Program-made: the position numbers and the translations under genes
Notes under the pieces: model-generated
Seen by the model: the letters and a program-made list of their open reading frames with translations, nothing else
Databases searched by the model: none
Told to the model about the DNA's origin: nothing
Part shown: piece by piece, positions 42,614 to 60,720 of the stretch
Numbering within the stretch: the first letter of the stretch is position 1
Layout of the letters: every line of letters begins with the position of its first letter
Source: Gemmatimonadota bacterium
Lineage (GTDB): Bacteria > Gemmatimonadota > Gemmatimonadetes > Gemmatimonadales > GWC2-71-9
Direction of reading: 5' to 3'
NCBI GenBank assembly: GCA_022566515.1
Contig: JADFIT010000004.1
Span: 1 to 60,720 of the forward strand
Length of the DNA: 60,720 nucleotides

Positions 42614-44223
42614 CGTTCGCCATGCGGCTCGATACCGTCGTGTCGACGTTCCCGACGCAGCTCATCGTCACTACGTTCGGGTTAGACGGAGCGAGCAATC
42701 GAGGCGCCAATTCGTTCGACGGCACCACGGCGATAGCGGCGCCGGGTCAGGCAGACACCATCACCGTGGTGGCCGGCATTACGAAGGAGCTGCCCACCGG
42801 CGGGTTGGTGGCCGACGGCATCGTGAACCGCAACCTGGGTGTGGCGGGGGAGGTCTACCTCACGAACTGGGAGCAGGATCAACTCGAAGTCTTCGACATC
42901 GCCACGCGGTCCTTCGGGACTCCGATTCCCATCGGTTCGAGGCCCTGGGGTATTGCCCTCTGGCCGGTGGATACCCTCGGAGCCAACGCCAACATCGTAA
43001 TGGTCGCCAACTCGGGCGGTACAAACATCTCCATCGTGGACATGGTTGGCCGGATCGAGACCCGCCGGCACGCGCTGCCCAACTTTATCATCGAGACCGT
43101 GGAGACCGAGATCGATCCCGACGACGGTCGCATCGTGCCGAAGGTCGTGCAGTACGATTTGTCGGATCGTCCGCAATACATCGGCGCAACGTGCCGGCCC
43201 ACGACCGGCTCCACCATCTGCGCGGCGGACAGCATCTACGCGGTGTACTCCACCACGCCGACGCCCGGCCAGACGCCCCCGTTCCAGGACCTTGGAACGC
43301 TGCGGTGGGAGAATCTGACGGCCGGAACGCCGCAGTCACACTTCTTCTGGGAGCACGCGGTGGCTCCGGCTTCGGCCGACGCCGACACCTTGCGGGTGGT
43401 CGCCGAGCGGGCAGGCGTGTTCGAGACGCTGCTGTTCGCGGAGCAGCGCCGCACCGTCGACCTGCAATCGCTGGGCTTCCGGGACACGACGTTCGTGCGG
43501 AATTCCGGCAACTTCACACACACGTTCATTGGTGAAGGCGGCGGCAGTGGGGACTTTTTTGCCCGGGTCATGTCTTACGACGGCAACGTTCCCATCAGGG
43601 AGGTCTTTACCACGTTGATCCAGATCGACACGACCGTGGTGTTCGACTCCATTGCATTTCCCGTGGTGGATACGATCATAACGATCGATACTGTGGCGAC
43701 CGTCTTCGGGCCTACCATTATCGACGATGGCATCTCGCCAGGATTCCAGGTTCGAGACTTCATCGCCAACACGGCGGTTTCGATACGGTCCATCGGGACC
43801 AACTTCAACGGACAGACGAATCTCGTCCGCGCGGACTCCATCTACGTGCTCAACAGCTCGTTGCGCCTGACCGGAATAGTGCAAACACCGAGTGGCTCGA
43901 ATTTCGGGATGGATCTGAACTTCGACCACAACTTCAGCGCGGACGCTCGAGGCACGGCCGTCCCGGGTGACTCGGACAATCGACTCGTGTTTGTCGCGAC
44001 CGACAATCAAGAAATCGTCGCCTACGACACCTGGAACTTCGGTGAGGTCGCCAGCATCCCCATTAGGGACCCGATCATCGGACCGCTGCGGGTGGCCAGG
44101 CTACCGAGCGGGGAGCAGTTCCTGGTCGGCGTCACGGCCCGCGGAGTGGTCACGATAACCTTGCCGGCCATCTCGAACTCCTTCCTCTCGCCTCCGCGCC
44201 TGTGGAACAACCGCGATCGGTGA
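42610..44223 (+). CDS. Beta-propeller (YncE-like) surface protein; probable 3' part of the same frameshifted gene
   Basis: VYLTN..LEVFD, IPIGSRPWGIAL, VMVANSGGTNISIVD. No signal peptide of its own; frame open from 42574. Confidence 0.7.
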   Translation: MTFAMRLDTVVSTFPTQLIVTTFGLDGASNRGANSFDGTTAIAAPGQADTITVVAGITKELPTGGLVADGIVNRNLGVAGEVYLTNWEQDQLEVFDIATRSFGTPIPIGSRPWGIALWPVDTLGANANIVMVANSGGTNISIVDMVGRIETRRHALPNFIIETVETEIDPDDGRIVPKVVQYDLSDRPQYIGATCRPTTGSTICAADSIYAVYSTTPTPGQTPPFQDLGTLRWENLTAGTPQSHFFWEHAVAPASADADTLRVVAERAGVFETLLFAEQRRTVDLQSLGFRDTTFVRNSGNFTHTFIGEGGGSGDFFARVMSYDGNVPIREVFTTLIQIDTTVVFDSIAFPVVDTIITIDTVATVFGPTIIDDGISPGFQVRDFIANTAVSIRSIGTNFNGQTNLVRADSIYVLNSSLRLTGIVQTPSGSNFGMDLNFDHNFSADARGTAVPGDSDNRLVFVATDNQEIVAYDTWNFGEVASIPIRDPIIGPLRVARLPSGEQFLVGVTARGVVTITLPAISNSFLSPPRLWNNRDR

Positions 44224-46341: not shown

Positions 46342-48603
46342 ATGGCCAAAACAAAGGGCTCGCTGGTGGTGGTGGAATCGCCGGCAAAGGCAAGAACGAT
46401 CGGGAAATATCTCGGGAAGGGTTACACGGTGAAGGCCACCGTGGGTCACCTGAGGGATTTGCCCCAGCGCGAGCTCGGTGTCGACATCGAGAACGGCTTT
46501 GCGCCCAAGTACGTCACCATTCGGGGCAAGGGTAAGATGCTGGCCGAGCTGAAGAAAGTGGCCAAGCGCTCGACCAATATCTACCTGGCGACCGACCCCG
46601 ACAGGGAGGGTGAGGCGATTGCCTGGCACGTCGCCGACCAGCTAGGGGCTGGATCGAAGATTCATCGGGTGCTGTTCCACGAGATCACGAAGGAAGCGGT
46701 GGCGCAGGCGATGAAGAACCCGATTCCGATCGACAGGCGAAAGGTCGACGCCCAGGTGGCGCGGCGGATCTTGGACAGGCTCGTCGGATACAAGGCGAGT
46801 CCGCTGTTGTGGAAATCGGTGAAGACCGGACTGTCGGCCGGCCGGGTTCAGACGGTTGCCCTGCGGATACTGGTGGAGCGGGAAGCCGAAATAGAGAAGT
46901 TCAAGCCGAAGGAGTATTGGTCGATCGAGGCGGAGCTGACGGCCAAGAAGAAGAAATTCATTGCCAAGCTCCACAAGATCGACGGTGCGAATCCAGAGCT
47001 GAAATCGGAGCAGGCGGCCAGGGTCGTCGTGGATGCCGTGAGCGACGCACCGTTCGTGGTGTCCAAGGTTCTGAGGCGCGAGCGCCGCAAGAGGCCGGCG
47101 GCGCCGTTCATCACGAGCACCATGCAGCAGGAGGCGTCCAAGCGCTTGGGGTTCTCGGCCCAACGCACGATGCGTACGGCCCAGCAGCTCTACGAGGGCA
47201 TTGAAGTGGGGGCTGAAGGGGCTGTCGGTCTCATCACGTACATGCGGACGGACTCCACCAGGGTGGCTAGCGTGGCCATCGACCACGTGCGCGAGTTCAT
47301 CGCGAACAGCTACGACGCGCCGTACCTGCCGGCAAAACCCAACACGTACAAGGCCAAAAACGTCCGTGCGCAGGATGCACACGAGGCGATCCGTCCTACC
47401 GGTGTCGAGCGCAAGCCGGACGTCATCAAAGGAGCGCTCACGAGTGATCAATACAAGCTGTACCGTCTCATCTGGCAGCGGTTCGTAGCCTCACAGATGA
47501 CTCCTCTGGTGTACGACACCACGACGATCGATTTCGAGATCGACAAGTACTTGTTCCGGGCCACCGGATCGCTGGTGAAATTCGACGGCTTTCAGGTGCT
47601 CTATCGGGAGTCGAAGGAGGTGGAGGAGGGGCAGGACCCAGAGGATATTGCCCCGGTGCCCGCTCTCGAGAAGGGCGAAAGTGTGGACCTGCTTGGCGTA
47701 ACGCCGCACCAGCATTTCACCGAACCTCCGCCGCGTTTCAGCGAGGCGAGCCTGGTCAAGGAGCTCGAGCGCCTGGGGATTGGGAGGCCGAGTACGTACA
47801 GCACCATCATCTCGACGTTGCGTAACCGCGCCTATGTCAACGTCACCGACCGCCGCTTTACTCCAACCGAGCTCGGCAAGACGGTGGCGAAGGTCATGGT
47901 GAGCCGGTTTCCGGACATATTCAACGTCCAGTTCACCTCCGGAATGGAGGAGGAACTGGACAAGATCGAGGAAGGGAAGCTTGGCTGGCAGGAGGTGCTG
48001 AGGGATTTCTACGAACCGTTCTCCAAGAATCTCGAGAACATCGACGTGGAGGCGATGATCCGAGAGGCGCACGACCTGGAGGGTTTGGAGGATGAGCGCT
48101 GCGAAAAGTGCGGCAGCAAGTTGACCGTGAAGAGCGGTCGCTTCGGCCCATTCATAGCGTGCACCAACTATCCCGACTGCAAGTACACGCGCCCCATCAA
48201 GAAGGACCGTCCGCCGGATCGCCCGACGGACGAGAAGTGCCAGGAGTGTGGGTCGCCAATGGTCATCAAGACCGGCCGTTACGGTGAGTTCCTGGCGTGC
48301 ACGACGTACCCGGATTGCCAGCACACGCGGCCCGTGCCGCTGGGAGTAAAATGTCCGCTCTGTGAGGTGGGTGACCTTACGCAGCGTCGCACGAGACGGG
48401 GAAGGGTGTTCTACGGTTGTGCGCGCTACCCGGATTGCGAGTATTCGACTTGGTACGAGCCCCTGCCGGAAACGTGTCGGAAGTGCGAGAAAGTGGGTGT
48501 CGAGAAGCGCTCAACGAAAGCGCGCGGTGAGTATCGCCGATGCATGCACTGTGAACACGAATCCGACGTGGAGGAGCCAGCAGCGGCCGGCGCAGAATCG
48601 TGA
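46342..48603 (+). CDS. topA: DNA topoisomerase I with C-terminal zinc ribbons
   Basis: VESPAKA, DPDREGE, SAGRVQ, ITYMRTD, AHEAIRP, GRPSTY, C4 repeats. Confidence 0.98.
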   Translation: MAKTKGSLVVVESPAKARTIGKYLGKGYTVKATVGHLRDLPQRELGVDIENGFAPKYVTIRGKGKMLAELKKVAKRSTNIYLATDPDREGEAIAWHVADQLGAGSKIHRVLFHEITKEAVAQAMKNPIPIDRRKVDAQVARRILDRLVGYKASPLLWKSVKTGLSAGRVQTVALRILVEREAEIEKFKPKEYWSIEAELTAKKKKFIAKLHKIDGANPELKSEQAARVVVDAVSDAPFVVSKVLRRERRKRPAAPFITSTMQQEASKRLGFSAQRTMRTAQQLYEGIEVGAEGAVGLITYMRTDSTRVASVAIDHVREFIANSYDAPYLPAKPNTYKAKNVRAQDAHEAIRPTGVERKPDVIKGALTSDQYKLYRLIWQRFVASQMTPLVYDTTTIDFEIDKYLFRATGSLVKFDGFQVLYRESKEVEEGQDPEDIAPVPALEKGESVDLLGVTPHQHFTEPPPRFSEASLVKELERLGIGRPSTYSTIISTLRNRAYVNVTDRRFTPTELGKTVAKVMVSRFPDIFNVQFTSGMEEELDKIEEGKLGWQEVLRDFYEPFSKNLENIDVEAMIREAHDLEGLEDERCEKCGSKLTVKSGRFGPFIACTNYPDCKYTRPIKKDRPPDRPTDEKCQECGSPMVIKTGRYGEFLACTTYPDCQHTRPVPLGVKCPLCEVGDLTQRRTRRGRVFYGCARYPDCEYSTWYEPLPETCRKCEKVGVEKRSTKARGEYRRCMHCEHESDVEEPAAAGAES

Positions 48604-49913
48604 AGGCCGCGGTAGTAGGTGGCGGCCTTGCCGGGTGTGAGGCGGCATGGGTGCTCGCCGAGTTGGGCGTCAAGGTCACGTTGTACGAGATGCGACCGAA
48701 GGTCAAGAGTCCTGCTCATCAGACCGATAGTCTCGCCGAATTGGTCTGCACCAACTCCTTCAAGTCAACCGATACGAGCAACGCTCATGGGCTGTTGAAG
48801 GCGGAGCTTCGCCTTCTGGGCAGCTTGCTGTTGGTGACCGCGGATGAGGTGCGGGTCCCGGCAGGGTCGGCCCTCGCGGTGGACCGGGTCTTGTTCGCCC
48901 GGTTGGTCACCGAGCGGGTCAAATCACATCGCAACATCGAAGTGGTGTGCGAGGAGGTCACGTCCCTGCCCTCTCCCGGCATCATCGCTACGGGCCCGCT
49001 CACGTCCGATCGCCTTGCCGCCGTCGTTCAGGAGCGACTCGGCGTCGCCCATCTGGCGTTCTTCGATGCGATTGCCCCGATTGTGGCGGCAGATTCCCTC
49101 GACCACGATGTGCTCTACCGCATGTCTCGCTACGGGAAGGGTGGAGGTGACGACTACCTCAACGCGCCCTTCGACCGAGAACGCTATTATGGGTTTGTGC
49201 AGGCTTTGGTGGCTGCTGAGCAGTACGAAGGACACAATTTCGACAAGGTTCCGTATTTCGAAGGCTGCCTGCCCGTCGAGGAGATGGCCCGGCGAGGACC
49301 CGACACGCTGAGGTTCGGGCCGATGAAGCCGGTTGGCCTCCCGGATCCCCACACGGGAAGGGAACCCTACGCGGTGGTGCAGCTTCGGTCAGAGGATCGG
49401 GCGGGCCAGATGTGGAACCTCGTCGGCTTTCAAACCCGATTGAGGACGGGCGCGCAGGGGAAAGTGTTCCGCATGATCCCGGGGTTGGAGAGGGCGGAAA
49501 TGCTTCGCTGGGGCAGTATCCACCGGAACACGTATCTGAACTCGCCGGCGGTGCTCTCGCCGCATCTGTCCGCGCTCGACGATCCACAGCTGCTGTTCGC
49601 CGGCCAGCTCGTTGGGGTCGAGGGATACACCGAGTCACTCGGCACCGGCATCCTGTGTGGAATCAACCTAGGGCGTATCCTTGGAGGCGATGATCCGGTG
49701 TTGCCTCCGGAGGAGACCATGCTGGGAAGCTTGCTGCGGTACGTCCATGGCGCCGATCAGAAGAGTTTTCAGCCCATGAATGCCAATTTCGGTCTGTTGC
49801 CGCCGTTGCCGCACCGGGTTCGTGATAAGAGAAAGAAGCGGGAGGCGCTGGCCTCGCGCTCTCTCGATGCGATGTCGGGATTTGTGGCGCGGTTGAGCCG
49901 CGTACCGGCGTGA
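48600..49913 (+). CDS. trmFO: Folate/FAD-dependent tRNA m5U54 methyltransferase
   Basis: GGGLAGCEAA, ELVCTNS, FEGCLP, FGPMKPVG, HRNTY, GVEGY, PMNANFG. Confidence 0.96.
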   Translation: MKAAVVGGGLAGCEAAWVLAELGVKVTLYEMRPKVKSPAHQTDSLAELVCTNSFKSTDTSNAHGLLKAELRLLGSLLLVTADEVRVPAGSALAVDRVLFARLVTERVKSHRNIEVVCEEVTSLPSPGIIATGPLTSDRLAAVVQERLGVAHLAFFDAIAPIVAADSLDHDVLYRMSRYGKGGGDDYLNAPFDRERYYGFVQALVAAEQYEGHNFDKVPYFEGCLPVEEMARRGPDTLRFGPMKPVGLPDPHTGREPYAVVQLRSEDRAGQMWNLVGFQTRLRTGAQGKVFRMIPGLERAEMLRWGSIHRNTYLNSPAVLSPHLSALDDPQLLFAGQLVGVEGYTESLGTGILCGINLGRILGGDDPVLPPEETMLGSLLRYVHGADQKSFQPMNANFGLLPPLPHRVRDKRKKREALASRSLDAMSGFVARLSRVPA

Positions 49914-50866
49914 GCGACGGGAAGTCGCACGCGAGCACGATGCGGTGCCCCGAGCGTGAGAGCTTTCTGTCGTATCTCACTCACGAGCGGAACGACTCGC
50001 CGCACACTGTCAAGGCGTATCAGCGTGACCTCGACGTATTTCAATCGTTTTGCGACGAGTATTTCGGCGGCGCTTCCGAGTGGACATGGCAGGCAGTCGA
50101 TCGGTTGACCGTACGAAGCTTCATGGGAGAGTTGGGGCGCCGCGGTCTCACGAAACGATCTGTTTCGCGTGCGGTATCGGCGCTGCGGACGTTTTACCGG
50201 TTCCTCAACGAGCGGTTTGACGTGGCCGGCAATCCCGTTGCGGGCATACGGCTGCCGAAAGCGGAGCAACGACTGCCGGCCGTGCTCGATCGCCGGCAGG
50301 TCGAGGAGGTATTCCTTCTGGCGGAGCGATGGGCGTCTGAGAACGACTTCGCCGGCGTGCGGGATCTCACCATACTGGAGTTTTTCTACAGCACCGGGAT
50401 GCGCCTTGCCGAGCTGGCCGGCATCAACCTTGCGGACGTCGACATCGTGAGCGAGCAGGTGAAGGTGCGCGGCAAGGGTCGCAAGGAACGATTGCTTCCC
50501 CTGGGAAGCTTTGCAGTCGCTGCGCTGCGGAGATACCTGCCGGTGCGCGAGGAGCGGCTGGCGGGCCGCAGGAAAGGTGGGCGCGGTGAGCCGGCGGTGT
50601 TTCTCGCGGTACGCGGTACGCGGCTGTCGCCCCGCGGCGTGCAGTACGTGGTGCGGAAATTCTTCGACGCCATCGGTGGGAATGCCGGCCTCAAGGTGCA
50701 CAGCCTACGACACAGCTTTGCCACGCATCTGCTCGACGCCGGTGCCGACCTCCGGGCGGTCCAGGAATTGCTCGGACATGCCTCGCTGAGCACGACACAG
50801 GTGTATACTCATACTAGTGTGAAGCGGTTGAAAAAAGTGTACGAGCAGGCGCATCCGAGAGCCTGA
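49910..50866 (+). CDS. xerC: Tyrosine recombinase XerC
   Basis: [44 protein letters not shown]; conserved neighbourhood. Confidence 0.92.
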
Positions 50867-50891
50867 GACCCAGAACTCGAGACCTGATAAC

Positions 50892-51434
50892 ATGATTCCT
50901 GGTCAAATCAGTCACGCCACGACGATTCTGTGCGTCCGCCGCGACGGAAAGACCTCCATGGGCGGCGACGGGCAGGTCACAGTCGGCGAGACGATCATGA
51001 AGGCCAAGGCCAACAAGATCCGGTCGGTCGCTGACGGCAAAGTCTTGGCGGGTTTTGCCGGTGCCGCCGCCGACGCCTTTACGCTCTTCGAGCGGTTCGA
51101 GGAGAAGCTGAAGCGATATCCGGAGAACCTGCCCCGGGCAGCCGTGGAGCTGGCCAAGGACTGGCGCAGCGACCGGGTATTGCGACGGCTCGAGGCCTTG
51201 CTGGCGCTGGCAGACCGGGACCATAGCTTCCTGGTAAGTGGCAGCGGAGAACTGATCGAGCCGGATGATGGAGTCTTGGCGATCGGCTCGGGGGGAAATT
51301 ATGCACTGGCCGCGGCGAGAGCACTCCTGCGGCACTCTGATTTCTCGGCTCACGAAATCGTGGACAAGAGCTTGCACGTCGCAGGCGAGATTTGCGTTTA
51401 TACGAATGACCATCTGACGATTATGGATATCTGA
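50892..51434 (+). CDS. hslV: ATP-dependent protease subunit HslV
   Basis: TTIL, GDGQVT, GFAG..ADAFTL, AIGSGG. Confidence 0.97.
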
Positions 51435-51482
51435 CCGGGGCGCGGAACGCGGACTCGGTAGGTTGGTGAAGCAAGTTCATAT

Positions 51483-53033
51483 ATGACTGATTCGACAAAA
51501 CAGACTCAACCCGTGGTTTCCGCGGCCGAAAAGAGTTCGCCGGAATCGCCGCAGCCATGGCTCGAGGAGCTTACTCCGCGGCAGATCGTCGCCGAGTTGG
51601 ACCGTTACATCGTGGGCCAGGATGCGGCAAAGAAGGCCGTTGCCATCGCGGTGCGTAACCGTTGGCGTAGAGCCCAGGCGCCGGAGGAAATCCGCGACGA
51701 GATCCTCCCGAACAACATCATCTTGATCGGGCCAACGGGTGTTGGGAAAACAGAAATCGCCCGGCGGCTGGCACGTCTGTCCGGTGCTCCGTTCATCAAG
51801 GTGGAGGCGTCGAAATTCACCGAAGTCGGCTACGTCGGTCGAGATGTCGAGTCGATGGTCCGTGATCTCGTGGACAACGCCGTCAACATGGTACGCAGCG
51901 AGCGGGAGGACGAAGTGTTCCCCACCGCAGAGGACCGCGTGGAGGAGCGAATACTGGATCTGTTGTTGCCCCCCCCGCTTCCCGCGCCTTCCCCGCCCCC
52001 GGCGGCGACCGGCACTCCAACGGATCCTGTAGAGGATGGTGGCAGCTCCGACGTGAGACCTCTGTTCGTGGTTTCATCCGGTGGGGAAATCGAGGCGCAA
52101 GAGCACCCAAAGCAAAAGGAAGAGATCGCCGGCGCCGAGATGGCCAGGTACAAGCGAACGCGCGATAAGCTCAGGGTACTGCTTCGGGACGGCAAGCTGG
52201 AAGACCGGGAGATCGAAGTGGAAGTCACACAACCAGGGTTCCAGATACTCGACTTCATGCAGCAGCCGCAGGGAATGGAGGGACCCGATATCAACCTCGG
52301 CGAGATGCTGCAGGACATGTTGCCCAAGAGGACCAAGACCCGCGTGGTGCATGTCTCAGAGGCTCGACGTATTCTGCTGGACGATGAACTCAAGAAACTC
52401 GTCGAGATGGAGGATGTGGTCAACGAAGCACTCGACCGAGTAGAGAATCATGGCGTGATTTTCATCGATGAGCTCGACAAGGTGGTGGGGGAGCGCTCCC
52501 AGACGGGACCGGACATTTCGCGGGAGGGGGTGCAGCGCGATCTCCTGCCGATCGTCGAGGGTTCGACCGTCCAGACTCGACACGGCTACGTTCGTACGGA
52601 CCACATTCTCTTTATCGCCGCCGGTGCCTTCCACGTCTCAAAGATCTCAGATATGATTCCGGAGATGCAAGGACGGTTTCCCATACGCGTCGAACTGAAG
52701 ACGCTGACGCAGGCCGACTTCGTCCGTATCATGACTGAACCGGAGAATGCCCTGACCAAACAATATCAGGCGCTCTGTGCCTCGGAGGGCGCGGAGTTGG
52801 AGTTTACCGATAGCGGTATCGAAGAGATCGCGCGGATTGCAACCGAGGTCAACGATCGCCTCGAGAATATCGGGGCGCGCCGCCTCCACACCGTCATGAC
52901 TACACTGCTGGATGACGTGTTGTTCAATTTGCCTGACATTCCGAACAAGAAGATCGTGTTCGACGCACCAGAGGTTCGTGAGCGGCTCATGAAAATCGTC
53001 GAAGACCAGGACCTCAGGAACTACATCCTCTGA
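51483..53033 (+). CDS. hslU: ATP-dependent protease ATPase HslU
   Basis: [43 protein letters not shown]-terminal YIL. Confidence 0.97.
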
Positions 53034-53039
53034 TCCTCC

Positions 53040-53068
53040 TTTACACGCCCCTCTCCCGCTGCTAGACT
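53040..53068 (+). promoter_or_regulatory. Putative sigma70 promoter for argF-gcvT
   Basis: TTTACA-N17-TAGACT with an extended TG. Confidence 0.4.
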
Positions 53069-53111
53069 CTCCCTCCGAACCTGTCATTTTGACCCTCCAC
53101 AACAGCGGGGT

Positions 53112-54011
53112 ATGCCGAAACGGGACTTTCTGGCGGTCACCGATCTCTCAAAAGCAGAAATCCTGGAGCTGTTTCGGGTTGCGCGGGAGCTGAAGTCAGA
53201 CGAGAAAGCGGCGAAGCCACTCGCTGGCAAGACGCTGGCGATGATCTTTGCCAAGAGCAGCACGCGGACCCGTATTTCCTTCGAGTCGGGGATGTACCAG
53301 CTCGGCGGGCACGCGCTGTTCCTGTCGAGCCGTGACCTCCAGCTGGGGAGAGGCGAGCCGATCAAGGATACCGCCAGGGTCATGTCGCGCTACGTCGACG
53401 GTATCATGATCCGGACCTTCGCGCACAGCGACGTGGAGGAGCTGGCGGAGCACGCCACTGTTCCGGTCATCAATGGCCTCACAGACCTGTTGCACCCGTG
53501 CCAGGTCCTCGCGGATATGTTCACGATCGAAGAGGCGCTCGGTGGTTTGGAGGATCGGGTCGTCGCGTGGGTGGGCGATGGGAACAACATGGCCAACTCT
53601 TGGCTGAACGCGGCGGCAACGGTGAAGTTTGAGTTACGGCTGGCGTGTCCCAAGGGTTACGAACCGAACCGCGAAATCCTCGAGACCGCCATGGGAAAAA
53701 CCCGTATACAGATCACGGAAGATCCGGAAGAAGCCGTCAGGGGAGCCCATGTGGTGAACACCGACGTATGGGCTTCGATGGGTCAGGAAGACGAGTCGGA
53801 GGTTCGGGCTGAAGCGTTCGAGGGCTACGTGATTGACAGGAAGTTGATGCGATTGGCCGATGAGGACGCCATTTTTCTCCACTGTCTTCCCGCCCACCGT
53901 GGTGAGGAAGTCGAAGCGGAGGTGTTTGAGGGTCCGCAATCGCGGGTCTTCGATCAGGCCGAGAACCGACTCCATGTTCAGAAGGCGTTGCTGGTAAAAC
54001 TCTTGGGGTGA
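53112..54011 (+). CDS. argF: Ornithine carbamoyltransferase
   Basis: STRTR, HPCQ, DVWASMG, HCLP, AENR. Confidence 0.97.
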   Translation: MPKRDFLAVTDLSKAEILELFRVARELKSDEKAAKPLAGKTLAMIFAKSSTRTRISFESGMYQLGGHALFLSSRDLQLGRGEPIKDTARVMSRYVDGIMIRTFAHSDVEELAEHATVPVINGLTDLLHPCQVLADMFTIEEALGGLEDRVVAWVGDGNNMANSWLNAAATVKFELRLACPKGYEPNREILETAMGKTRIQITEDPEEAVRGAHVVNTDVWASMGQEDESEVRAEAFEGYVIDRKLMRLADEDAIFLHCLPAHRGEEVEAEVFEGPQSRVFDQAENRLHVQKALLVKLLG

Positions 54012-54024
54012 AAGGGAGCGACCA

Positions 54025-55128
54025 ATGAGTGGGAAACGAACACCGTTCTACAATCTTCACGTCTCGTTGAACGCGAAGATGGCAGACTTCGTCGGCTTCC
54101 AAATGCCGATTCAGTATCCCACCGGTATTACGAAGGAACACGAGATCGTGCGCACCGGTGTCGGCGTGTTCGATGTGTCGCATATGGGAGAGTTCGAGAT
54201 CACCGGTCCGGACCGTAACGCCTTCGCCAACCGGGTAACGTGCAATGACGTCGGCGCGCTGAGGGACGGACAGGCGCAGTACTCCGCCTTGCTCGCCGAA
54301 AACGGAACTTTTATTGATGACTGCCTCGTCTATCGGTTTGATGACAAGATCATGATGGTCGTGAACGCAGCCAATATCGAAAAGGATTGGAAATTGCTCG
54401 TTCTGAAAAAGGCTGGCATCAACGTTCGGCTGCGCAACATCAGCGATGACGTTGCGTTGCTTGCCGTCCAAGGTCCCAAGAGCGAAGAGCTGGTTCAATC
54501 CCTGACCAAGATGAACCTGTCGCGCATCAAGTACTACCACTTTGAAACAGGCAAGGTTGGTGGCGTGGACTGCTTCATCTCCCGCACCGGTTACACGGGT
54601 GAAGACGGCTTCGAGCTGTACTTTCGACCCGCAGATGCCGAGGTGATGGGAAATACGCTGATCGGCCACGGCCGGGGGGAGCCGGTAGGGCTTGGCGCCA
54701 GAGATTCCCTGCGACTGGAAGCCGGCTATCCGCTCTACGGGAACGACATCGACGATACGGTCAACCCCTATGAGGCCGGCCTCGGGTGGATCGTGAAGCT
54801 GGATAAAGGCGCTCCGTTTACGGGCCGCACCGCCCTCGAAGCGGTGAAACGCGGAGACGTGAAGCGCAAGCTCGTCGGATTCAAGGTGCCCGAGAAAGGC
54901 TCCATCCCTCGCCATGGCTACGACGTGTACCTCAAGGGTACCAAGGTAGATACAGTCCGTAGCGGTGGCTTCGGACCCTCGGTGGGTGGAGCCATCGGTA
55001 CGACCTACTTACCGACCCATTCCGTCGATCCCGGAACCGAGATCGAAATCGATTGCCGCGGCACCAAGGTCAAAGCCGAGGTGGTGAAGATGCCGTTCTA
55101 CAAGGGCGGGAGTGTCAAGAAAAGCTAA
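54025..55128 (+). CDS. gcvT: Glycine cleavage aminomethyltransferase
   Basis: FDVSHMG, SRTGYTGEDGFE, ARDSLRLEAG.PLYG. Confidence 0.97.
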   Translation: MSGKRTPFYNLHVSLNAKMADFVGFQMPIQYPTGITKEHEIVRTGVGVFDVSHMGEFEITGPDRNAFANRVTCNDVGALRDGQAQYSALLAENGTFIDDCLVYRFDDKIMMVVNAANIEKDWKLLVLKKAGINVRLRNISDDVALLAVQGPKSEELVQSLTKMNLSRIKYYHFETGKVGGVDCFISRTGYTGEDGFELYFRPADAEVMGNTLIGHGRGEPVGLGARDSLRLEAGYPLYGNDIDDTVNPYEAGLGWIVKLDKGAPFTGRTALEAVKRGDVKRKLVGFKVPEKGSIPRHGYDVYLKGTKVDTVRSGGFGPSVGGAIGTTYLPTHSVDPGTEIEIDCRGTKVKAEVVKMPFYKGGSVKKS

Positions 55129-55152
55129 CTCGGCGCGAAGAGCGGGGAAGTA

Positions 55153-55638
55153 ATGGCGGTGCGACTTGCCGTACTCACCATCTCCGACCTCGGCGCGGCT
55201 GGGGAACGGGCAGATACGTCGGGAGATTCGATCGTTGCGTGGGCCGGCGAGAACGGTTTTGAGGTGGCCGCAAGGGAACTGGTTCCCGACGAAAGCGACC
55301 GCATCGCCGGACATCTGTGCCGCTGGGCGGACGATGGAACCGCCGATCTCATAATCACAACCGGCGGCACCGGGTTCGGCCCGAGAGATGTCACGCCCGA
55401 GGCCACTCGGGCCGTGATAGATAGAGACGCGCCCGGAATTTCCGAAGCCATCCGGGCCGCCGGCTACGCCAAAAACCCGCGCGCCGCCTTGTCGCGCGGC
55501 GTCGCCGGTACGAGAGGCGCCGCGCTCATCGTCAACTTGCCGGGCAGCCCGGCCGGAGTGAGAGACGGTCTCGCGGTTCTCGGCCCCCTCGTCGAGCACG
55601 CCGTGAAACTGCTCACCAGCCAGCCAACGGATCACTGA
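55153..55638 (+). CDS. MogA/MoaB family molybdenum cofactor biosynthesis protein
   Basis: LTISD, DTSG, TTGGTG..PRDVTPEAT, LSR, NLPGSP. Confidence 0.92.
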   Translation: MAVRLAVLTISDLGAAGERADTSGDSIVAWAGENGFEVAARELVPDESDRIAGHLCRWADDGTADLIITTGGTGFGPRDVTPEATRAVIDRDAPGISEAIRAAGYAKNPRAALSRGVAGTRGAALIVNLPGSPAGVRDGLAVLGPLVEHAVKLLTSQPTDH

Positions 55639-57179
55639 TGGCCGATACGATTCTCCTCACGATGGACGATCTCGAAACAGCGGTGCGTGTCAACGCCACC
55701 TTCGAGGCGGACGGCGAGAAGACCGTGCTGGTCTCGGCCATGGACGACATACCCGCCGCCGTGAAGGGCGCAAATCCCGACATCATCATCCTGACGGGCG
55801 CGCTGCACGAACGGCCGGCGCGGGCGTTGATCCAGTTGGCAAGAGTCCGCTCTACATCCACACTAGGCCTGCTCGAGGAGACGGAGCCCGATGCTCGGAA
55901 GATAGCGTTGGAACTGGGCCTCACCGGTTGGCTCGTCAAACCGGTGGACGGGCAACACGTCATGGCAACCGCCCGACGCCTGATGGAGCGGCGGCGCCTT
56001 CAGGAACGCACCGGCATCTTGGGAGAGAGTCCCGCCGTGCAGGAAATGCTCGTCAAGATCGAGCAAATGGCACCCGTGTCATCCACCGTGCTCATCGAGG
56101 GAGAATCGGGTACGGGCAAGGAACTCGCCGCGCACGCACTCCATGAACTCTCCAATAGAAGGGATCAGCCCTTCATCGCCGTGAACTGCTCCGCGTTGCC
56201 GGAGACCTTGCTCGAGTCCGAGCTTTTCGGACATGAAAAAGGTGCGTTCACGGGTGCGGCAGAACGCCGGCTCGGACGTTTCGAGCTCGCCCATAGGGGT
56301 ACGCTCTTCCTCGATGAAGTGGGCGACATGTCTCCCGCGACGCAAGTGAAACTGCTGCGCGTGTTGGAGAACCATTCCTTCTTCCGTGTAGGGGGGTCTG
56401 AGGCGATCCACGCCGATGTCCGCGTCGTGGTAGCGACGAACCGCAGGCTCAAAGAAGTGGTTGCGATGGGTGAGTTTCGCGAAGACCTGTTCTTCCGCAT
56501 CAACGTGCTGTCGATCTATCTGCCGCCGCTACGGGAGCGTCGCGGCGACATCCCCCTTCTGGTGCGTCACTTCGTCAAAGAGTTCAGCGAAGAACATAAT
56601 AGGCCCTTCCGTGGCATCACTCCCGAGGCAATGCAGTTGCTCGTCAGCGCGCACTGGCCCGGTAACGTGCGTCAGTTGCGCAATCTGATCGAGTCGATGG
56701 TCGTGCTTGCCCCCGGACAAGAGATTCGGGCCACGGACATCCCGTCGGACATACGCGAAGAGGGCACGAGATTGCTACCGATGCGCATGCCTGGTGGGGC
56801 ACCGAAGACGGCGGGTAGGGAATTGGAGTTCATCTTTCGCAGCCTCATGGACCTGAAGTTGAAGATGGAGGAACTCAGTCGCCGAATGGACCAGCATGCG
56901 TCACGTGGTGTCGAGGCGATCGAGGTGGGAGGTGGCAGCCCGTTTCGGTCGGCAGAGCCCGTCGCCGCCATCGACCTCTCAGGCTTTCCCCAAGCCGACG
57001 AGACAGACTTGGCCGAACCGGTGCTGTATCAACCCGGAATGACGATGGCAGATGCGGAAAAGGCCACCATTGAGGGGGCCCTGCGTGAGAACGCCGGAAA
57101 CCGCCGCAAAGCCGCCGAAACGCTGGGGATAGGCGAACGGACCCTTTACAGGAAAATCAAGGAGTACGGGTTGGCGTGA
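55638..57179 (+). CDS. Sigma54-dependent activator with degenerate (pseudo) receiver domain
   Basis: GESGTGKE, GAFTGA, LDEVG, WPGNVR, Fis HTH. Receiver keeps DD and KP but has Thr at the phospho-Asp position (PDIIILT). Confidence 0.9.
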   Translation: MADTILLTMDDLETAVRVNATFEADGEKTVLVSAMDDIPAAVKGANPDIIILTGALHERPARALIQLARVRSTSTLGLLEETEPDARKIALELGLTGWLVKPVDGQHVMATARRLMERRRLQERTGILGESPAVQEMLVKIEQMAPVSSTVLIEGESGTGKELAAHALHELSNRRDQPFIAVNCSALPETLLESELFGHEKGAFTGAAERRLGRFELAHRGTLFLDEVGDMSPATQVKLLRVLENHSFFRVGGSEAIHADVRVVVATNRRLKEVVAMGEFREDLFFRINVLSIYLPPLRERRGDIPLLVRHFVKEFSEEHNRPFRGITPEAMQLLVSAHWPGNVRQLRNLIESMVVLAPGQEIRATDIPSDIREEGTRLLPMRMPGGAPKTAGRELEFIFRSLMDLKLKMEELSRRMDQHASRGVEAIEVGGGSPFRSAEPVAAIDLSGFPQADETDLAEPVLYQPGMTMADAEKATIEGALRENAGNRRKAAETLGIGERTLYRKIKEYGLA

Positions 57180-57195: not shown

Positions 57196-57224
57196 TTGAC
57201 ACTCGGGGTGGGCCACACCATGAT
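57196..57224 (+). promoter_or_regulatory. Putative sigma70 promoter upstream of the diguanylate cyclase
   Basis: TTGACA-N17-CATGAT. Confidence 0.5.
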
Positions 57225-57240
57225 TGGCGCAGCCCTTGCA
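57225..57240 (+). promoter_or_regulatory. Sigma54 promoter upstream of the diguanylate cyclase
   Basis: TGGCGCA-GCCC-TTGCA with exact GG-N10-GC spacing. Confidence 0.65.
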
Positions 57241-57277: not shown

Positions 57278-58957
57278 GTGCAGTTCGAAATCAACTCGGA
57301 TAAATGTGTGGCCTGCCTCGCGTGTGTCCGGGCGTGTCCGGCCGGGGCGGTGGCGGTGGAGGAAACGGACGTTGAGATCATCGACGACGCGTGCATTCAA
57401 TGCGGGGCGTGCGTTCCCGCGTGTCCGCACGACGCCATTGACGTTCGGGGAGACTTTAGCCGAGCGCTGGAGTTGGCCGTCGCGGGCGACGCCATACTGA
57501 TTCTGAGCGTCGAGGCCGAGATCCACTTCTACCCCCACACGCCGGAACAGATGGTGAACGCGTGCTATCGCGCGGGTTTCGGTATTGTCTACCGCGGTGT
57601 CTTGGGCGACGAGTTGGTGGCGGAAGGCTATCAGAGGCTTTGGGAAAAGGGTGGTTGGGGAACGATGATCCGGTCCAGTTGTCCGGTCGTCGTCGAAACC
57701 GTTCGGCGCGAATATCCCGACCTCGTTCCCTATTTGGCTCCTGTTCAAACCCCTGTGCAGGCAGAGGCCGGTTACATTCGGGCTAAACACGGGTCCGATG
57801 TGAAGGTGGTCTACGCCGGCGTCTGTATCACCGAGGGGGGTGAGGCGGTGGATGCGGCCATTACGCTGCATGAACTCGATGAACTGCTTCGCACCCGCCG
57901 GGTGGACGTGGCGAAGGAGGCACCGTTCTTCGACCGGATCCCCGAAGAGCGGAGGCGCCACATCAGTGCGGCGGGTGGGTTGCCCCTGCGGGTGCTGCAG
58001 GAGGAGCGCCACTCCAGCCGCCGATTCCGGAAGCTGCGGGGGCTGGGCCATCTGCCCATGATCGCTCGGGCGGTCACGGTGGACGAGATCGACCTGGGGT
58101 TTGTGGACCTGCTGCCTTGTGAGGGGTGTCTGGACCACCCCCTCCTGGGGCCAGCCGAGGAGTTGTACTACCGGAGGAAGGTGCAGGCGTCTCTGGAGCC
58201 ACCCCGGAGCCCGGAGCCGGTTTTGGAGCCCGACATCGAGGTGGACGTACGGGCCAAGTTCGAAGCGGCGGTCAACGGGCGGGAGAGCGTTGGTGAGGAG
58301 CAGATCGCCGCTGTCATCCAGCGGATCGGGACTGCTCCAGGTGGGCACCATTGGGACTGTGGCGCCTGTGGATTCGGCACCTGCCGCGAGTTCGCCGTGT
58401 CTCAGGTCAAGGGGCGGGCCGACCTCCGGCAATGCCCGCCATATCAGGAGCGAAAGGCTCGGCAAGCCCAGGAGGAGGCCGCGGTGGACGAGCTGACGGG
58501 GCTCGCCACTTTCCGAGTGTTGCGGGACAGTCTGCAGCAGGAGGTGGCGCGAGCGCGCCGGACTGAGGTCTCGTTTGCCGTGCTGTTCATTGATCTGGAC
58601 AACTTCAAAAACGTCAACGACCGGTACGGCCATGAAGAGGGCAACGAGGTGCTGAAGTTGGCGGCCGGGGTCATGGGGAGGACGGTGCGGGGTACTGATA
58701 TGGCGGCCCGCTATGGCGGTGATGAGTTCGTAGTCTTGCTCATCGGGACCGACCTGCATGGCGCCCAGAAGGTGGGGGAGCAGATCCGCCATGCGGTCGA
58801 GATGGCCGGCACGCGAGCCGGATATCCGGCGGGGATGGTGACGGTGTCGATCGGGGCTGCCCAATTCGACCTCAAGGACGACGACCCAGAGGTTCTGCAG
58901 CTTGCGGACAGGTCTTTGTACGAAGCCAAGGGTTCGGGCGGCAACCGGGTTATCTGA
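57278..58957 (+). CDS. Diguanylate cyclase fused to 2x[4Fe-4S] ferredoxin, [FeFe]-hydrogenase-like and Cys-rich FeS domains
   Basis: CVACLACVRACP, CIQCGACVPACP; RSSCPVV, GVC, PCEGC; DCGACGFGTC..CP; DELTGL, DLDNFK.VND.YGH, RGTD, RYGGDEF. Confidence 0.9.
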   Translation: MQFEINSDKCVACLACVRACPAGAVAVEETDVEIIDDACIQCGACVPACPHDAIDVRGDFSRALELAVAGDAILILSVEAEIHFYPHTPEQMVNACYRAGFGIVYRGVLGDELVAEGYQRLWEKGGWGTMIRSSCPVVVETVRREYPDLVPYLAPVQTPVQAEAGYIRAKHGSDVKVVYAGVCITEGGEAVDAAITLHELDELLRTRRVDVAKEAPFFDRIPEERRRHISAAGGLPLRVLQEERHSSRRFRKLRGLGHLPMIARAVTVDEIDLGFVDLLPCEGCLDHPLLGPAEELYYRRKVQASLEPPRSPEPVLEPDIEVDVRAKFEAAVNGRESVGEEQIAAVIQRIGTAPGGHHWDCGACGFGTCREFAVSQVKGRADLRQCPPYQERKARQAQEEAAVDELTGLATFRVLRDSLQQEVARARRTEVSFAVLFIDLDNFKNVNDRYGHEEGNEVLKLAAGVMGRTVRGTDMAARYGGDEFVVLLIGTDLHGAQKVGEQIRHAVEMAGTRAGYPAGMVTVSIGAAQFDLKDDDPEVLQLADRSLYEAKGSGGNRVI

Positions 58958-58997
58958 CCAATTGAACGATGGAAGCATCCAGCCAAGTGGGAGAGAC

Positions 58998-59747
58998 GTG
59001 AAAGCCAAGAAAGACGATCCCGAGCAGGCATCGGCAGGCGAAGCGCAGGTTCCCCTTCGCAAGGCTCAGAGCGAGGCTCAGGCCGATCCTTGGGGGATAA
59101 GGCGGGCGGAGGTGTTGCTGGCCAGCCTCACGGGGGTGCTTTCTGCCAGGGTCGTGACGACACCGACCGGAGAGATTACGGAGGTCCACATACTGACGGA
59201 GGCCGGCCTCACGCCGAAGCAGACGGTGCGCAACGTCGAGAGCGCTCTGCTGGCCCAGCTCGGGATCAAGCTCGATCACCGGAAGATCAGCGTGGCGCAG
59301 ACTGCCGATGTCCTGCCCCTCGAGGCGATGGAAGACCGGGCGGTTCTGGAGAGGGCTAGAAGGCGGGGGGTCGTGTTCCGTAGGGTGGAGGTGACTCCGA
59401 CGAGCACTCAGCATAGGGTGACCGTCACCGTCACCATGGAGCGGGACGGGGAAGAGCTGGTGGCCCAGCAGGAGGCTGGGGACGCCGCCAAGATGCGCCT
59501 GGTGGCGGCCGCCCGGGCGTCTGTATCGATCTTGGACATCATGGTTGCCGGCGGTACCATCGACCTGGCCGGGGCTCAGCTCGTCGAGGCCTTCGACACC
59601 CGTTTGGCGTTCGTTGGGATCCACGTGCTGCAAGGCCGTGATGCCAGGCTACATGTGGGGACGTGTGAGGTGAAGGGGAGCGTGGAGCAGGCAGGGGCCC
59701 TGGCCGTCCTCGACGCGACCAACCGCTGGCTCACCTCGATGCTGTAG
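58998..59747 (+). CDS. Hypothetical cytoplasmic protein
   Basis: Clean ORF with GGGAGAG RBS before GTG 58998; motif-like EVHIL..PKQTVRNVESAL..LDHRKISVAQ and AVLDATNR. Confidence 0.8.
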   Translation: MKAKKDDPEQASAGEAQVPLRKAQSEAQADPWGIRRAEVLLASLTGVLSARVVTTPTGEITEVHILTEAGLTPKQTVRNVESALLAQLGIKLDHRKISVAQTADVLPLEAMEDRAVLERARRRGVVFRRVEVTPTSTQHRVTVTVTMERDGEELVAQQEAGDAAKMRLVAAARASVSILDIMVAGGTIDLAGAQLVEAFDTRLAFVGIHVLQGRDARLHVGTCEVKGSVEQAGALAVLDATNRWLTSML

Positions 59748-59796: not shown

Positions 59797-59822
59797 CACC
59801 CCTTACGCGAGGGGTGTTTTCT
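59797..59822 (+). terminator. Intrinsic terminator after the hypothetical gene
   Basis: CACCCCT-tacgcg-AGGGGTG followed by TTTTCT. Confidence 0.55.
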
Positions 59823-60147: not shown

Positions 60148-60720
60148 GTGAAAATCCGGCCGCCGAGCATCAATTTCTACGTCTTCGCGATGTGTGGTAT
60201 TGCAGCATTCCTGTTGCTGCAAGCCGAGTGGCTGGTGTCGGGAGAACTGTTAAGCGCAGCTGCAACGGTATTGCTCATTGCGGTGGTCTCTGAGGCGGGA
60301 TCAGTTCGACTTGGCCTTGGCACCACCACGAGTTCAATCGCTTTCATTCCATTCTTCGCCGCCATAGTGTTGGTGGGCCCGGCCTGGGCGATGGCTGTTG
60401 GTGGTTTGACGCTATTCATTTCTAGTTTCCTGTTCAAACGAAAGCCCCTCGTGAAGGTGGCGTTCAATACTGCCAAGGAGGTTGTCGCAGTTGGTGCCAG
60501 CGGGGGCATCTACGTATTGCTCGGGGGTGTTCCGTCGCTGGGTGAATTCGCGCCGGCGATCCCTGCGTTCGCTGCGGCGGCGTTGATCTACTTCCCGCTC
60601 GACCAAGGCCTCCCGGCTATTGCAATTGCCCTCAGCACGAAAACGCGGCTGCGGGAAGCTTGGGGTCGGCTGGCTACTGGTCATCAGCTTTTGGATCTGG
60701 GCGCCAGCGCTGTAGCGTTG
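60148..60720 (+). CDS. Polytopic membrane sensor N-terminus (MASE9-like; possibly an HD-GYP or GGDEF protein), truncated by the window edge
   Basis: Open frame from GTG 60148 to the end: ..SSIAFIPFFAAIVLVGP..KRKPLVKVAFNTA..IYVLLGG..; at least 5 TM helices; output domain not in the window. Confidence 0.7.
   Translation, partial: MKIRPPSINFYVFAMCGIAAFLLLQAEWLVSGELLSAAATVLLIAVVSEAGSVRLGLGTTTSSIAFIPFFAAIVLVGPAWAMAVGGLTLFISSFLFKRKPLVKVAFNTAKEVVAVGASGGIYVLLGGVPSLGEFAPAIPAFAAAALIYFPLDQGLPAIAIALSTKTRLREAWGRLATGHQLLDLGASAVAL

Follow-up and report, generated by a model that had tools for sequence, protein, structure and literature searches.

Sensory [FeFe]-hydrogenases of the HydS type share a layout of two N-terminal [4Fe-4S] ferredoxin motifs, an H-domain and a C-terminal Cx2Cx4Cx16C motif, as described in PMC13104023. 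In the group D protein of Thermoanaerobacter mathranii (TamHydS, M2e), the C-terminal site binds a [4Fe-4S] cluster (PMC13104023), and both this protein and the group C protein of Thermotoga maritima (TmHydS, M2f) bind the H-cluster after artificial maturation (PMC13104023, PMC10055695). Fer4, Fe_hyd_lg_C and FeS are also listed as regulatory domains of clostridial sigma-54 activators (PMC6615313), and the HydDB table gives as its only cyclase-linked class the [NiFe] group 2c 'diguanylate cyclase-linked' putative sensory hydrogenases (PMC5037454). Here we describe a gene whose product joins a HydS-type sensor half directly to a GGDEF domain. It lies in a 60,720-nucleotide stretch of DNA from a Gemmatimonadota bacterium (GCA_022566515.1, contig JADFIT010000004.1), analysed as a whole and called the window below. 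A full-text literature search, with subscription papers and supplements outside its scope, found no paper on a GGDEF-hydrogenase fusion. The sensor half keeps the cysteines of four cubane-type sites and is predicted to have lost the diiron pocket; the protein is probably a signalling enzyme that reads the state of its clusters.

The features of the cyclase gene are as follows.

57278..58957, + strand: the cyclase gene, encoding two Fer4 motifs, a hydrogenase-like H-domain, an FeS domain and a GGDEF domain (open reading frame, Pfam, NCBIfam, AlphaFold2 model, Foldseek)
57284..57448, + strand: ferredoxin domain with two CxxCxxCxxxCP motifs, Cys 10/13/16/20 and 39/42/45/49 (Pfam Fer4 and Fer4_7)
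57527..58132, + strand: [FeFe]-hydrogenase H-domain fold, residues 84-285, predicted to be without the diiron pocket (Pfam Fe_hyd_lg_C, PF02906; Foldseek)
57671..57685, + strand: L1 (P1) motif RSSCP, residues 132-136, aligned to TSCCP of solved hydrogenases
57818..57844, + strand: L2 (P2) motif GVCITEGGE, residues 181-189 (GVCITEGGEA aligned to MPCIGKKFEA)
58109..58129, + strand: L3 (P3) motif LLPCEGC, residues 278-284 (DLLPC-EGC aligned to EVMACPGGC with a one-residue gap)
58355..58441, + strand: C-terminal HydS-type FeS domain (Pfam PF04060), Cys 361/364/369/386 in Cx2Cx4Cx16C spacing
58436..58480, + strand: single helix, residues 387-401, connecting the FeS domain directly to the GGDEF domain (DSSP on the AlphaFold2 model)
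58478..58948, + strand: GGDEF domain, residues 401-557 (Pfam, NCBIfam, motifs, Foldseek)

The open reading frame has a GTG start and encodes 559 amino acids. Fer4 matches twice in residues 3-57 (E 3.5e-12, 46 bits against a Pfam cut-off of 21.1), and two [4Fe-4S] clusters are predicted there. The Fe_hyd_lg_C match to the protein is weak but significant (E 1.8e-18, 67.5 bits against 22.1), and the same profile scores 69.3 bits at the H-domain when run on the DNA. The FeS domain (residues 360-388; E 1.9e-9, 37.5 bits against 23) and the GGDEF domain (PF00990, E 5.2e-39, 134 bits against 23.8; TIGR00254, 151.4 bits) follow. NCBIfam hydrogenase models fell short of their cut-offs (TIGR04105, 102.6 of 450 bits; TIGR02512, 47.7 of 405.95 bits). 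Between the FeS and GGDEF domains there is no Pfam match to a PAS domain, and 12 residues separate C386 from the start of the NCBIfam GGDEF match at residue 399. The GGDEF motif itself occupies residues 480-484 (58715-58729), and an RxxD I-site, RGTD, stands five residues ahead of it (residues 471-474, 58688-58699). An earlier note on this DNA, made from the letters, had described two ferredoxin motifs, H-cluster-like motifs, a C-terminal Cys domain and a GGDEF with RxxD; Pfam and motif positions find every one of these in place, and the PF02906 score bears out its reading of a hydrogenase domain.

The structure model agrees with this domain order. An AlphaFold2 prediction from a 72-sequence alignment reached a mean pLDDT of 91.9. 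Foldseek matched its first ~400 residues to [FeFe]-hydrogenases (TmHydA 7p8n with TMq 0.49 over 431 columns, CbA5H, DdH and TkHydA), the matches spanning about 400-430 columns, and its C-terminus to the WspR, PleD and IsPadC cyclases (E about 1e-15). A sequence search of the PDB with the whole sensor half returned mostly polyferredoxins, MvhB or Fwd on top; solved hydrogenases aligned when the H-domain alone was used.

We aligned residues 60-300 with HMMER to three solved hydrogenases (HDCR HydA2 7qv7, T. kivui HydA1 8a6t and Chlamydomonas HydA1 3lx4); the residue correspondences at the H-site come from these alignments. The four H-site cysteines are C135, C183, C281 and C284, and there is one additional Cys, C96. 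In L1, the cubane ligand C135 is kept and the proton-transfer Cys (CpI C299) has become S134. In L2, C183 is kept, CpI M353 has become G181, and CpI K358, the L2 lysine of the diiron pocket that binds a cofactor cyanide, has become E186. In L3, C281 and C284 are kept in CxxC spacing, one residue below the canonical CxxxC, and CpI M497 has become L279. These states hold across 121 close homologues (the best 120 matches plus the query, identity at least 59%, a set biased to near kin of the window protein). C135, C183, G181 and C284 are each present in 121/121 and C281 in 120/121; position 134 is Thr in 117 and Ser in 4, and position 186 is Glu or Asp in 116/121. The residue numbers and roles of CpI M353, M497 and C299 follow PMC10055695, where sensory hydrogenases are described as having mostly Gly, Ser or Thr at M353 and variable residues at C299 and M497. 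G181 and S134 are accordingly HydS-like features of the window protein, and the loss of the Lys is not. The H-domain is real, yet judging from these replacements it very probably cannot hold an H-cluster. The earlier note had listed the missing P2 Lys, the missing proton-transfer Cys, a P3 one residue short and four retained Cys, and the alignments to solved hydrogenases agree on each point.

The short P3, however, is no sign of decay. It is a trait of a large subgroup of HydS relatives. We searched residues 1-395 against 1.84 billion representatives and obtained 6027 matches at E <=1e-3 and 246 at <=1e-30; among the best 150 matches, 117 had at least 400 residues, of which 13 were close and 104 distant. 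About 100 representatives align with 27-32% identity across residues 1-394. The distant representatives fall into two types.

Long L3 type (CxxxC): 59/104, Lys kept in 50/59, the classic HydS with a PAS tail
Short L3 type (CxxC): 45/104, Lys kept in 31/45, fused directly to an output domain

PAS-type Pfam models match 10-20 of the long-type proteins, and a kinase or sigma-54 domain occurs in 1/59. Among the short-type proteins, phmmer assigns 16 kinase, 13 GGDEF and 11 sigma-54 AAA+ outputs (15-16, 14 and 11 by Pfam). A recent hydrogenase survey (2024) treats CxxxC as required and uses it as a filter (PMC11216029). Held against such a four-Cys-with-CxxxC definition of an [FeFe]-hydrogenase, the window protein has the four Cys, and its L3 reads C281-E-G-C284. 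Surveys that filter on CxxxC exclude the GGDEF-linked HydS clade described below, whose annotation reads 'diguanylate cyclase' and nothing more.

Although the pocket is altered, four cubane-type Cys sites remain; the ferredoxin domain has two of them, the former H-site and the Cx2Cx4Cx16C motif one each. We infer that they bind [4Fe-4S] clusters because the cysteines are conserved and homologues bind such clusters, the C-terminal site of TamHydS among them. The C-terminal Cys 361/364/369/386 are each present in 120-121 of the 121 close homologues. In the ferredoxin domain, C13 is kept in 106/121 (8 Ser, 7 gaps) and C42 in 101/121 (19 other residues, 1 gap), and the remaining six Cys are kept wherever the N-terminus is present. 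HydA made in the absence of HydEFG retains its cubane.

Within the close family, ligand variation is confined to the second Cys of each ferredoxin motif, with C42 replaced by Ser, Ala, Thr or Val in 19/121. Such Cys changes give [3Fe-4S] clusters in other ferredoxins. Cys96 (57563-57565), in the peptide NACYR, is kept in 120/121 close homologues and in most cluster-bearing relatives, and is replaced in 3/5 cluster-less relatives (NAAYA, NAVYA, NALSV).

The genome around the gene offers no visible route to an H-cluster. In the source genome (95% complete, 241 contigs), profile searches gave no match to HydE or HydG and no HydF above cut-off (best 70.5 bits against 325.55). The cyclase gene is the only Fe_hyd_lg_C (PF02906) match in that genome, which also has no [NiFe] large subunit and has three matches to heme-copper oxidase (COX1). 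The earlier note had drawn the absence of hydEFG from the window and aerobic respiration from ctaA; the former extends to the genome-wide search, and the latter stands with ctaA at 1405-2253 on the - strand and the three oxidase matches. Across a sample of 301 Gemmatimonadota genomes, 125 of them from f1, the family of the window genome, the sensor module occurs in 143/301 overall and in 115/125 f1 genomes (114/124 without the unpublished G057), and HydG in 0/125 f1 genomes. HydG exceeds its cut-off in only 3/301 genomes, all of family f10, which serve as a positive control for the maturase search within the phylum.

The f10 locus L022 (G002:C13:20000-39000) reads, in order, Rex, HydC, HydB, a group-A HydA, a HydS-histidine kinase fusion, a second kinase, HydE, HydG and HydF, a bifurcating-type [FeFe]-hydrogenase metabolism with a complete anaerobe-type set inside a distant Gemmatimonadota family. 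Its HydS-kinase has 669 residues, is 28% identical to the window sensor module and keeps the Lys (FIGPCIAKKGEA). In a single-contig genome of the same genus as the window genome (G142:C1:1098343-1099527), an orthologue 89-96% identical is spread over three adjacent matches covering residues 1-51, 47-191 and 187-395, which suggests frameshifts, that is, a pseudogene or assembly errors. The G217 orthologue is likewise split (3-268 and 269-389).

To place the sensor half, we built a tree with a quick IQ-TREE run (88 rows, 428 columns, f10 HydA as outgroup) that included 25/59 long-type proteins, 7/120 close homologues and 8/13 close representatives. The window family forms a group of 16 rows with support 100 on a stem of 1.16 changes per column, and is nested in a 27-row clade with support 99. 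The other 11 rows of this clade are 10 GGDEF-linked short-L3 proteins and P0204, in which phmmer detects no GGDEF domain and the motif is degenerate. The PAS-type HydS rows group separately, in a clade with support 100. On this sequence tree, the window protein is a descendant of bacterial HydS-type sensors and belongs to a GGDEF-linked clade. In the 11 members outside the window family, RSTC in L1 is invariant and a Lys stands at the 358 position in 2/11; some actinobacterial representatives have degenerate GGDEF motifs. A locus scan of the GGDEF clade, run with an alignment of a 4-sequence subclade and so covering the Coriobacteriia branch only, found 80 loci in the branch of Coriobacteriia and other Actinomycetota metagenome-assembled genomes. 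Five Coriobacteriia genomes that carry a clade member were tested, including two complete chromosomes; in each of them neither HydG nor HydE was found and the cyclase was the sole H-domain gene. The maturase-free state therefore reaches past the phylum of the window.

Relatives of the window protein form a series with stepwise cluster loss, seen in reading frames chosen by BLAST.

No H-site Cys left, Fer4 pair and C-terminal FeS motif retained: g11 (G038, G107, G162, G238), G078, G223, G021, f5 G049 and f6 G258
Only C183 left at the H-site, Fer4 pair and C-terminal FeS motif retained: G125
H-site gone, C-terminal motif incomplete: f6 G075 and f6 G135
Every cluster Cys lost, GGDEF intact: f6 G270, G086, G280, G261 and the second copy in G060

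The window subclade thus keeps all four sites under strong constraint, and elsewhere the scaffold and its GGDEF domain persist without them.

The output domain is intact in its motifs. The GGDEF, RxxD and Asn447 residues are present in 120-121 of the 121 close homologues. Nine residues past the invariant Asn447, at a position mapped to the base-reading site by motif spacing, the window protein has Asn456 (58643-58645) where canonical cyclases have Asp. This position is Asn in 113/121 and Ser in 8/121 homologues, and Asn in all Gemmatimonadota relatives of the loss series; clade members outside the phylum mostly have Asp (consensus of the 11, GHxxGD, with exceptions). According to PMC6456294, canonical GGDEF enzymes have Asp at the position that reads the Watson-Crick face, the Hypr enzymes that make 3'3'-cGAMP (cyclic GMP-AMP) have Ser348, nine residues past Asn339, and the Ser/Thr types described there always occur with GGDE[F/Y]. 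The identity of the GGDEF product is uncertain because the base-specifying Asp is Asn. The earlier note had the protein making cyclic di-GMP (c-di-GMP); the GGDEF and I-site motifs it relied on are intact, but c-di-GMP as the product is not secure.

Around the cyclase we found the following features.

58902..59747, + strand: orf281, no known family; conserved from DPWG at 59085, true start uncertain
60148..60720, + strand: 5' part of a third module gene, cut by the window end; its homologue is a MASE9 + HD-GYP (HD_5) phosphodiesterase
55638..57179, + strand: sigma-54 enhancer-binding protein, the upstream neighbour, conserved in part (Pfam)
57196..57224, + strand: sigma-70-like promoter, TTGACA-17 nt-CATGAT, a consensus match (10/12 positions)
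59797..59816, + strand: weak terminator-like hairpin and T-run after orf281 (8-pair stem, 5 GC pairs)

The cyclase gene heads a conserved three-gene module of cyclase, orf281 and MASE9-HD-GYP. orf281 stands directly downstream in 16/16 orthologous loci, and the third gene follows in all five loci with a long enough flank (tblastn). The window fragment of this third gene has no Pfam match by itself; a full-length homologue (L119:6335-7732, 466 amino acids) matches HD_5 (E 4e-36) and MASE9 (E 1.4e-5). orf281 has no family in Pfam or NCBIfam, and an Atlas search returned Gemmatimonadota hypothetical clusters only. The closest folds to its model (pLDDT 87.3) are allosteric regulatory domains, those of LeuA and of citramalate synthase (1sr9, E 2.3e-6; 3f6h, TMt 0.50). 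A predicted complex of cyclase and orf281 scored 0.51 (runs 0.51, 0.28 and 0.56; best of 3 controls 0.00), with at least 77% contact agreement between runs and a partner pLDDT of at least 77. Of 157 solved complexes 116 reach the mark for this score, as do 2 of 215 mismatched pairs; 18 of the 157 and both passing mismatches do so with scores no higher than 0.60, and by this calibration a score as weak as ours is more often wrong than right unless there is a strong prior.

Upstream, the sigma-54 activator is found in 7/11 loci and in 3/4 further loci; its residues 1-126 (55638-56015) have no Pfam match. Beyond it, 46342-55638 holds housekeeping genes: topoisomerase I (topA), a GidA-family TrmFO-like gene, a XerC-type recombinase, HslV, HslU, ornithine carbamoyltransferase (argF), GcvT and a Mog-like gene of MoCF biosynthesis. 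A promoter-like pair (TTGA[CA]N, 16-18 nt, [CT]ATNNT) lies 65-96 nt ahead of the start in 11/17 sequences, the window and 16 orthologous loci taken together. Terminator-like sites are no more frequent in the region than in its shuffles. The sigma-54 consensus TGGCRC-N5-TTGCW has two exact matches in the window against 0.17 expected, at 42694-42709 (- strand) and 57225-57240 (+ strand), the latter 38 nt ahead of the cyclase start and just past the sigma-54 activator gene. As a promoter, this second site (TGGCGC-N5-TTGCA) recurs in 0/12 orthologous loci, and we treat it as chance.

Near-identical DNA occurs in 20 public runs from 11 studies, with labels of marine sediment, other sediment or marine metagenome; the best-matching run may be the source sample. 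Contigs from 4 metatranscriptome-labelled runs (2 studies) cover the locus at 95% identity or more, a kind of match that cannot show transcription, strand or a common transcript and may come from DNA in the libraries; stretches without such contigs carry no information.

Taken together, these observations favour a cytoplasmic one-component signalling enzyme in which a HydS-derived sensor (residues 1-390) has lost its diiron subcluster and probably reports the state of the clusters that remain. Housekeeping Fe-S machinery would load up to four [4Fe-4S] clusters, with no need of HydEFG. The redox state or integrity of this cluster chain may shift with cellular reductant, O2 or nitric oxide (NO). 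By analogy with other GGDEF enzymes, the FeS domain and helix 387-401 would relay this change to the paired GGDEF domains of a dimer and so set how fast the cyclic dinucleotide is made. The RxxD I-site, observed as a motif, could give product feedback. The product would be c-di-GMP, or another purine dinucleotide given Asn456, and the two genes that conserved synteny places downstream, for the LeuA-regulatory-like-fold protein and the MASE9-HD-GYP phosphodiesterase, may read or degrade it. Redox, O2 or NO are presumed signals; most likely the sensor half reports redox or oxygen state, and a cyclic dinucleotide is the answer. The earlier note proposed a Nar1-like, [4Fe-4S]-only sensor. As a statement of how the protein works this fits, since there is no predicted capacity for an H-cluster, no maturase, no other hydrogenase and an aerobic genome; as to descent, the tree places the protein among bacterial HydS-type sensors.

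Several observations weigh against a sensory role for the clusters. Sister lineages retain the gene after loss of the H-site Cys or of every cluster Cys, and the exact L3 peptide PCEGCLDHP is encoded in 110/401 f1 genomes (108/399 without the unpublished G313 and G565), a lower bound that misses variant spellings. The core role of the scaffold may thus not depend on the H-site cluster. In TamHydS, the C-terminal cluster is described as unresponsive to H2 and its signalling role is doubted (PMC13104023). The tree is a quick one with many basal forks open, from which the order of events is not readable, and cluster binding, signal and product are all presumed rather than observed. It could then be that the Fe-S sites are mainly structural or vestigial, that the hydrogenase fold is a scaffold for dimerisation or docking, and that activity is set by a partner such as orf281 together with I-site feedback. 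The H-site-less and cluster-less lineages, which retain the scaffold, an intact GGDEF and the same downstream gene, speak for this, and the long stem of the window family, the adjacency of orf281 in every orthologous locus and the weakly supported complex prediction point the same way. However, the eight H-site and C-terminal Cys are held down to 59% identity, with six ferredoxin Cys kept too, and the weak complex score is of the kind that errs more often than not. The L3 peptide, found in 75/239 high-quality f1 genomes and 30/78 genera (0 matches for a reversed-pattern control), is also all-or-none by genus (11/11 in g20 and 9/9 in g28 against 0/17 each in g4, g7, g16 and g42), which is the pattern of a site in use. 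We regard a mainly structural role as unlikely for the window protein, though the loss series keeps it in play.

Two further explanations fare worse. The earlier note left H2 open as a signal, and descent from HydS-type proteins would suit a genuine H2 sensor whose H-site obtains a diiron cofactor, or another that reacts with H2, by an unknown route and that lets H2 control messenger synthesis, as proposed for HydS. All four H-site Cys are kept, among them the Cys that forms the bridge to the diiron site of hydrogenases, and a short-L3-type relative (CCNGC, also readable as CxxxC) sits in a hyd operon with HydEFG. Against this, the cyanide-binding Lys is an acid, both Met are replaced, the maturases HydE and HydG are missing from the genome with no HydF above cut-off, HydG is missing from all f1 genomes sampled, the genome has no hydrogenase of any type to regulate, and the neighbourhood consists of housekeeping and second-messenger genes. 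H2 is thus a very unlikely signal, and an H2 sensor with a cofactor of unknown origin is extremely improbable. The four predicted clusters in a chain also resemble the electron-transfer modules of hydrogenases and of the MvhB or Fwd polyferredoxins that top the sequence matches, as would be expected of a protein concerned chiefly with electron transfer or enzymatic turnover and carrying its GGDEF domain as a secondary or degenerate appendage. The near-invariance of GGDEF, I-site and Asn447, the retention of the GGDEF motif by Gemmatimonadota relatives without any cluster Cys, and the want of a redox-enzyme partner gene in the conserved neighbourhood make this highly improbable.

If the cluster-state sensor is real, the window protein would be the bacterial counterpart of Nar1: for a second time, and independently, a hydrogenase scaffold would have been reused after diiron loss, here for signalling. 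A single polypeptide with an assayable enzyme output would give a direct read-out of which cluster state matters, and relatives with all four sites, without the H-site or without any site amount to a natural deletion series. The gene is common in its family and also found in Coriobacteriia, and the change from Asp to Asn leaves the messenger of abundant sediment and soil bacteria in question. What is new here is the stepwise cluster-loss series in relatives, the Asn at the base-specifying Asp and the conserved three-gene module. A bolder reading would have a 'fossil', maturase-independent hydrogenase serve as an O2 or redox sensor in aerobic sediment bacteria. Given the Asn (Ser in some members) that reads the base in place of Asp, its messenger would differ from plain c-di-GMP, for example 3'3'-cGAMP or a dinucleotide that is mixed or contains adenine, with orf281 as the receptor and MASE9-HD-GYP as the dedicated hydrolase. 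We think this combination quite doubtful; if true, it would amount to an undescribed second-messenger system complete in itself, whose natural variants take away the clusters one by one.

Among known systems, HydS is the closest. The window protein shares its sensor layout, a small residue at CpI M353, and a replaced proton-transfer Cys; the two are 27-32% identical along the entire module, and the tree gives them a common descent. Unlike the group C HydS with its PAS domain, it has a GGDEF output instead; its L3 is CxxC where HydS has CxxxC, and the HydS Lys is Glu. Its genome has no HydEFG above cut-off and no hydrogenase operon, and whereas TmHydS and TamHydS bind the H-cluster, the window protein is predicted not to. 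Short-L3 HydS modules on histidine kinases or sigma-54 activators resemble it more in their CxxC-type L3 and direct output fusion, but most of these relatives keep the Lys (31/45). HydS-kinases of the f10 type can still be H2 sensors because they lie beside hydABC and hydEFG, which the window protein, on the evidence of its pocket and genome, very probably cannot be.

Eukaryotic Nar1 (NARFL, IOP1) is a hydrogenase-like protein of cytosolic Fe-S assembly with cubane Cys sites and no diiron site. The window protein appears to be an exaptation of the same sort: an aerobe without HydEFG has a hydrogenase fold that keeps its cubane Cys sites, with a cluster content presumed from them. Its origin appears to be independent, as it branches among bacterial HydS-type sensors in the tree, and it differs from Nar1 in its extra C-terminal FeS domain, its enzymatic signalling output and the lack of an evident link to Fe-S maturation. 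What it has in common with [NiFe] group 2c is the concept of coupling a sensor derived from a hydrogenase to the synthesis of c-di-GMP. That group belongs to an unrelated metalloenzyme superfamily, its sensor is a presumed H2-binding hydrogenase, and its cyclase is listed as 'linked'. Finally, the Hypr GGDEF enzymes (Geobacter GacA, which make 3'3'-cGAMP) likewise combine a non-Asp residue at the Watson-Crick-face position with a GGDEF rather than GGEEF motif, and the Hypr-signature Ser occurs in 8/121 members of the window family. Most of the family, the window protein included, has Asn instead, and the input domains are unrelated, that of GacA being a receiver domain and that of the window protein a hydrogenase fold.

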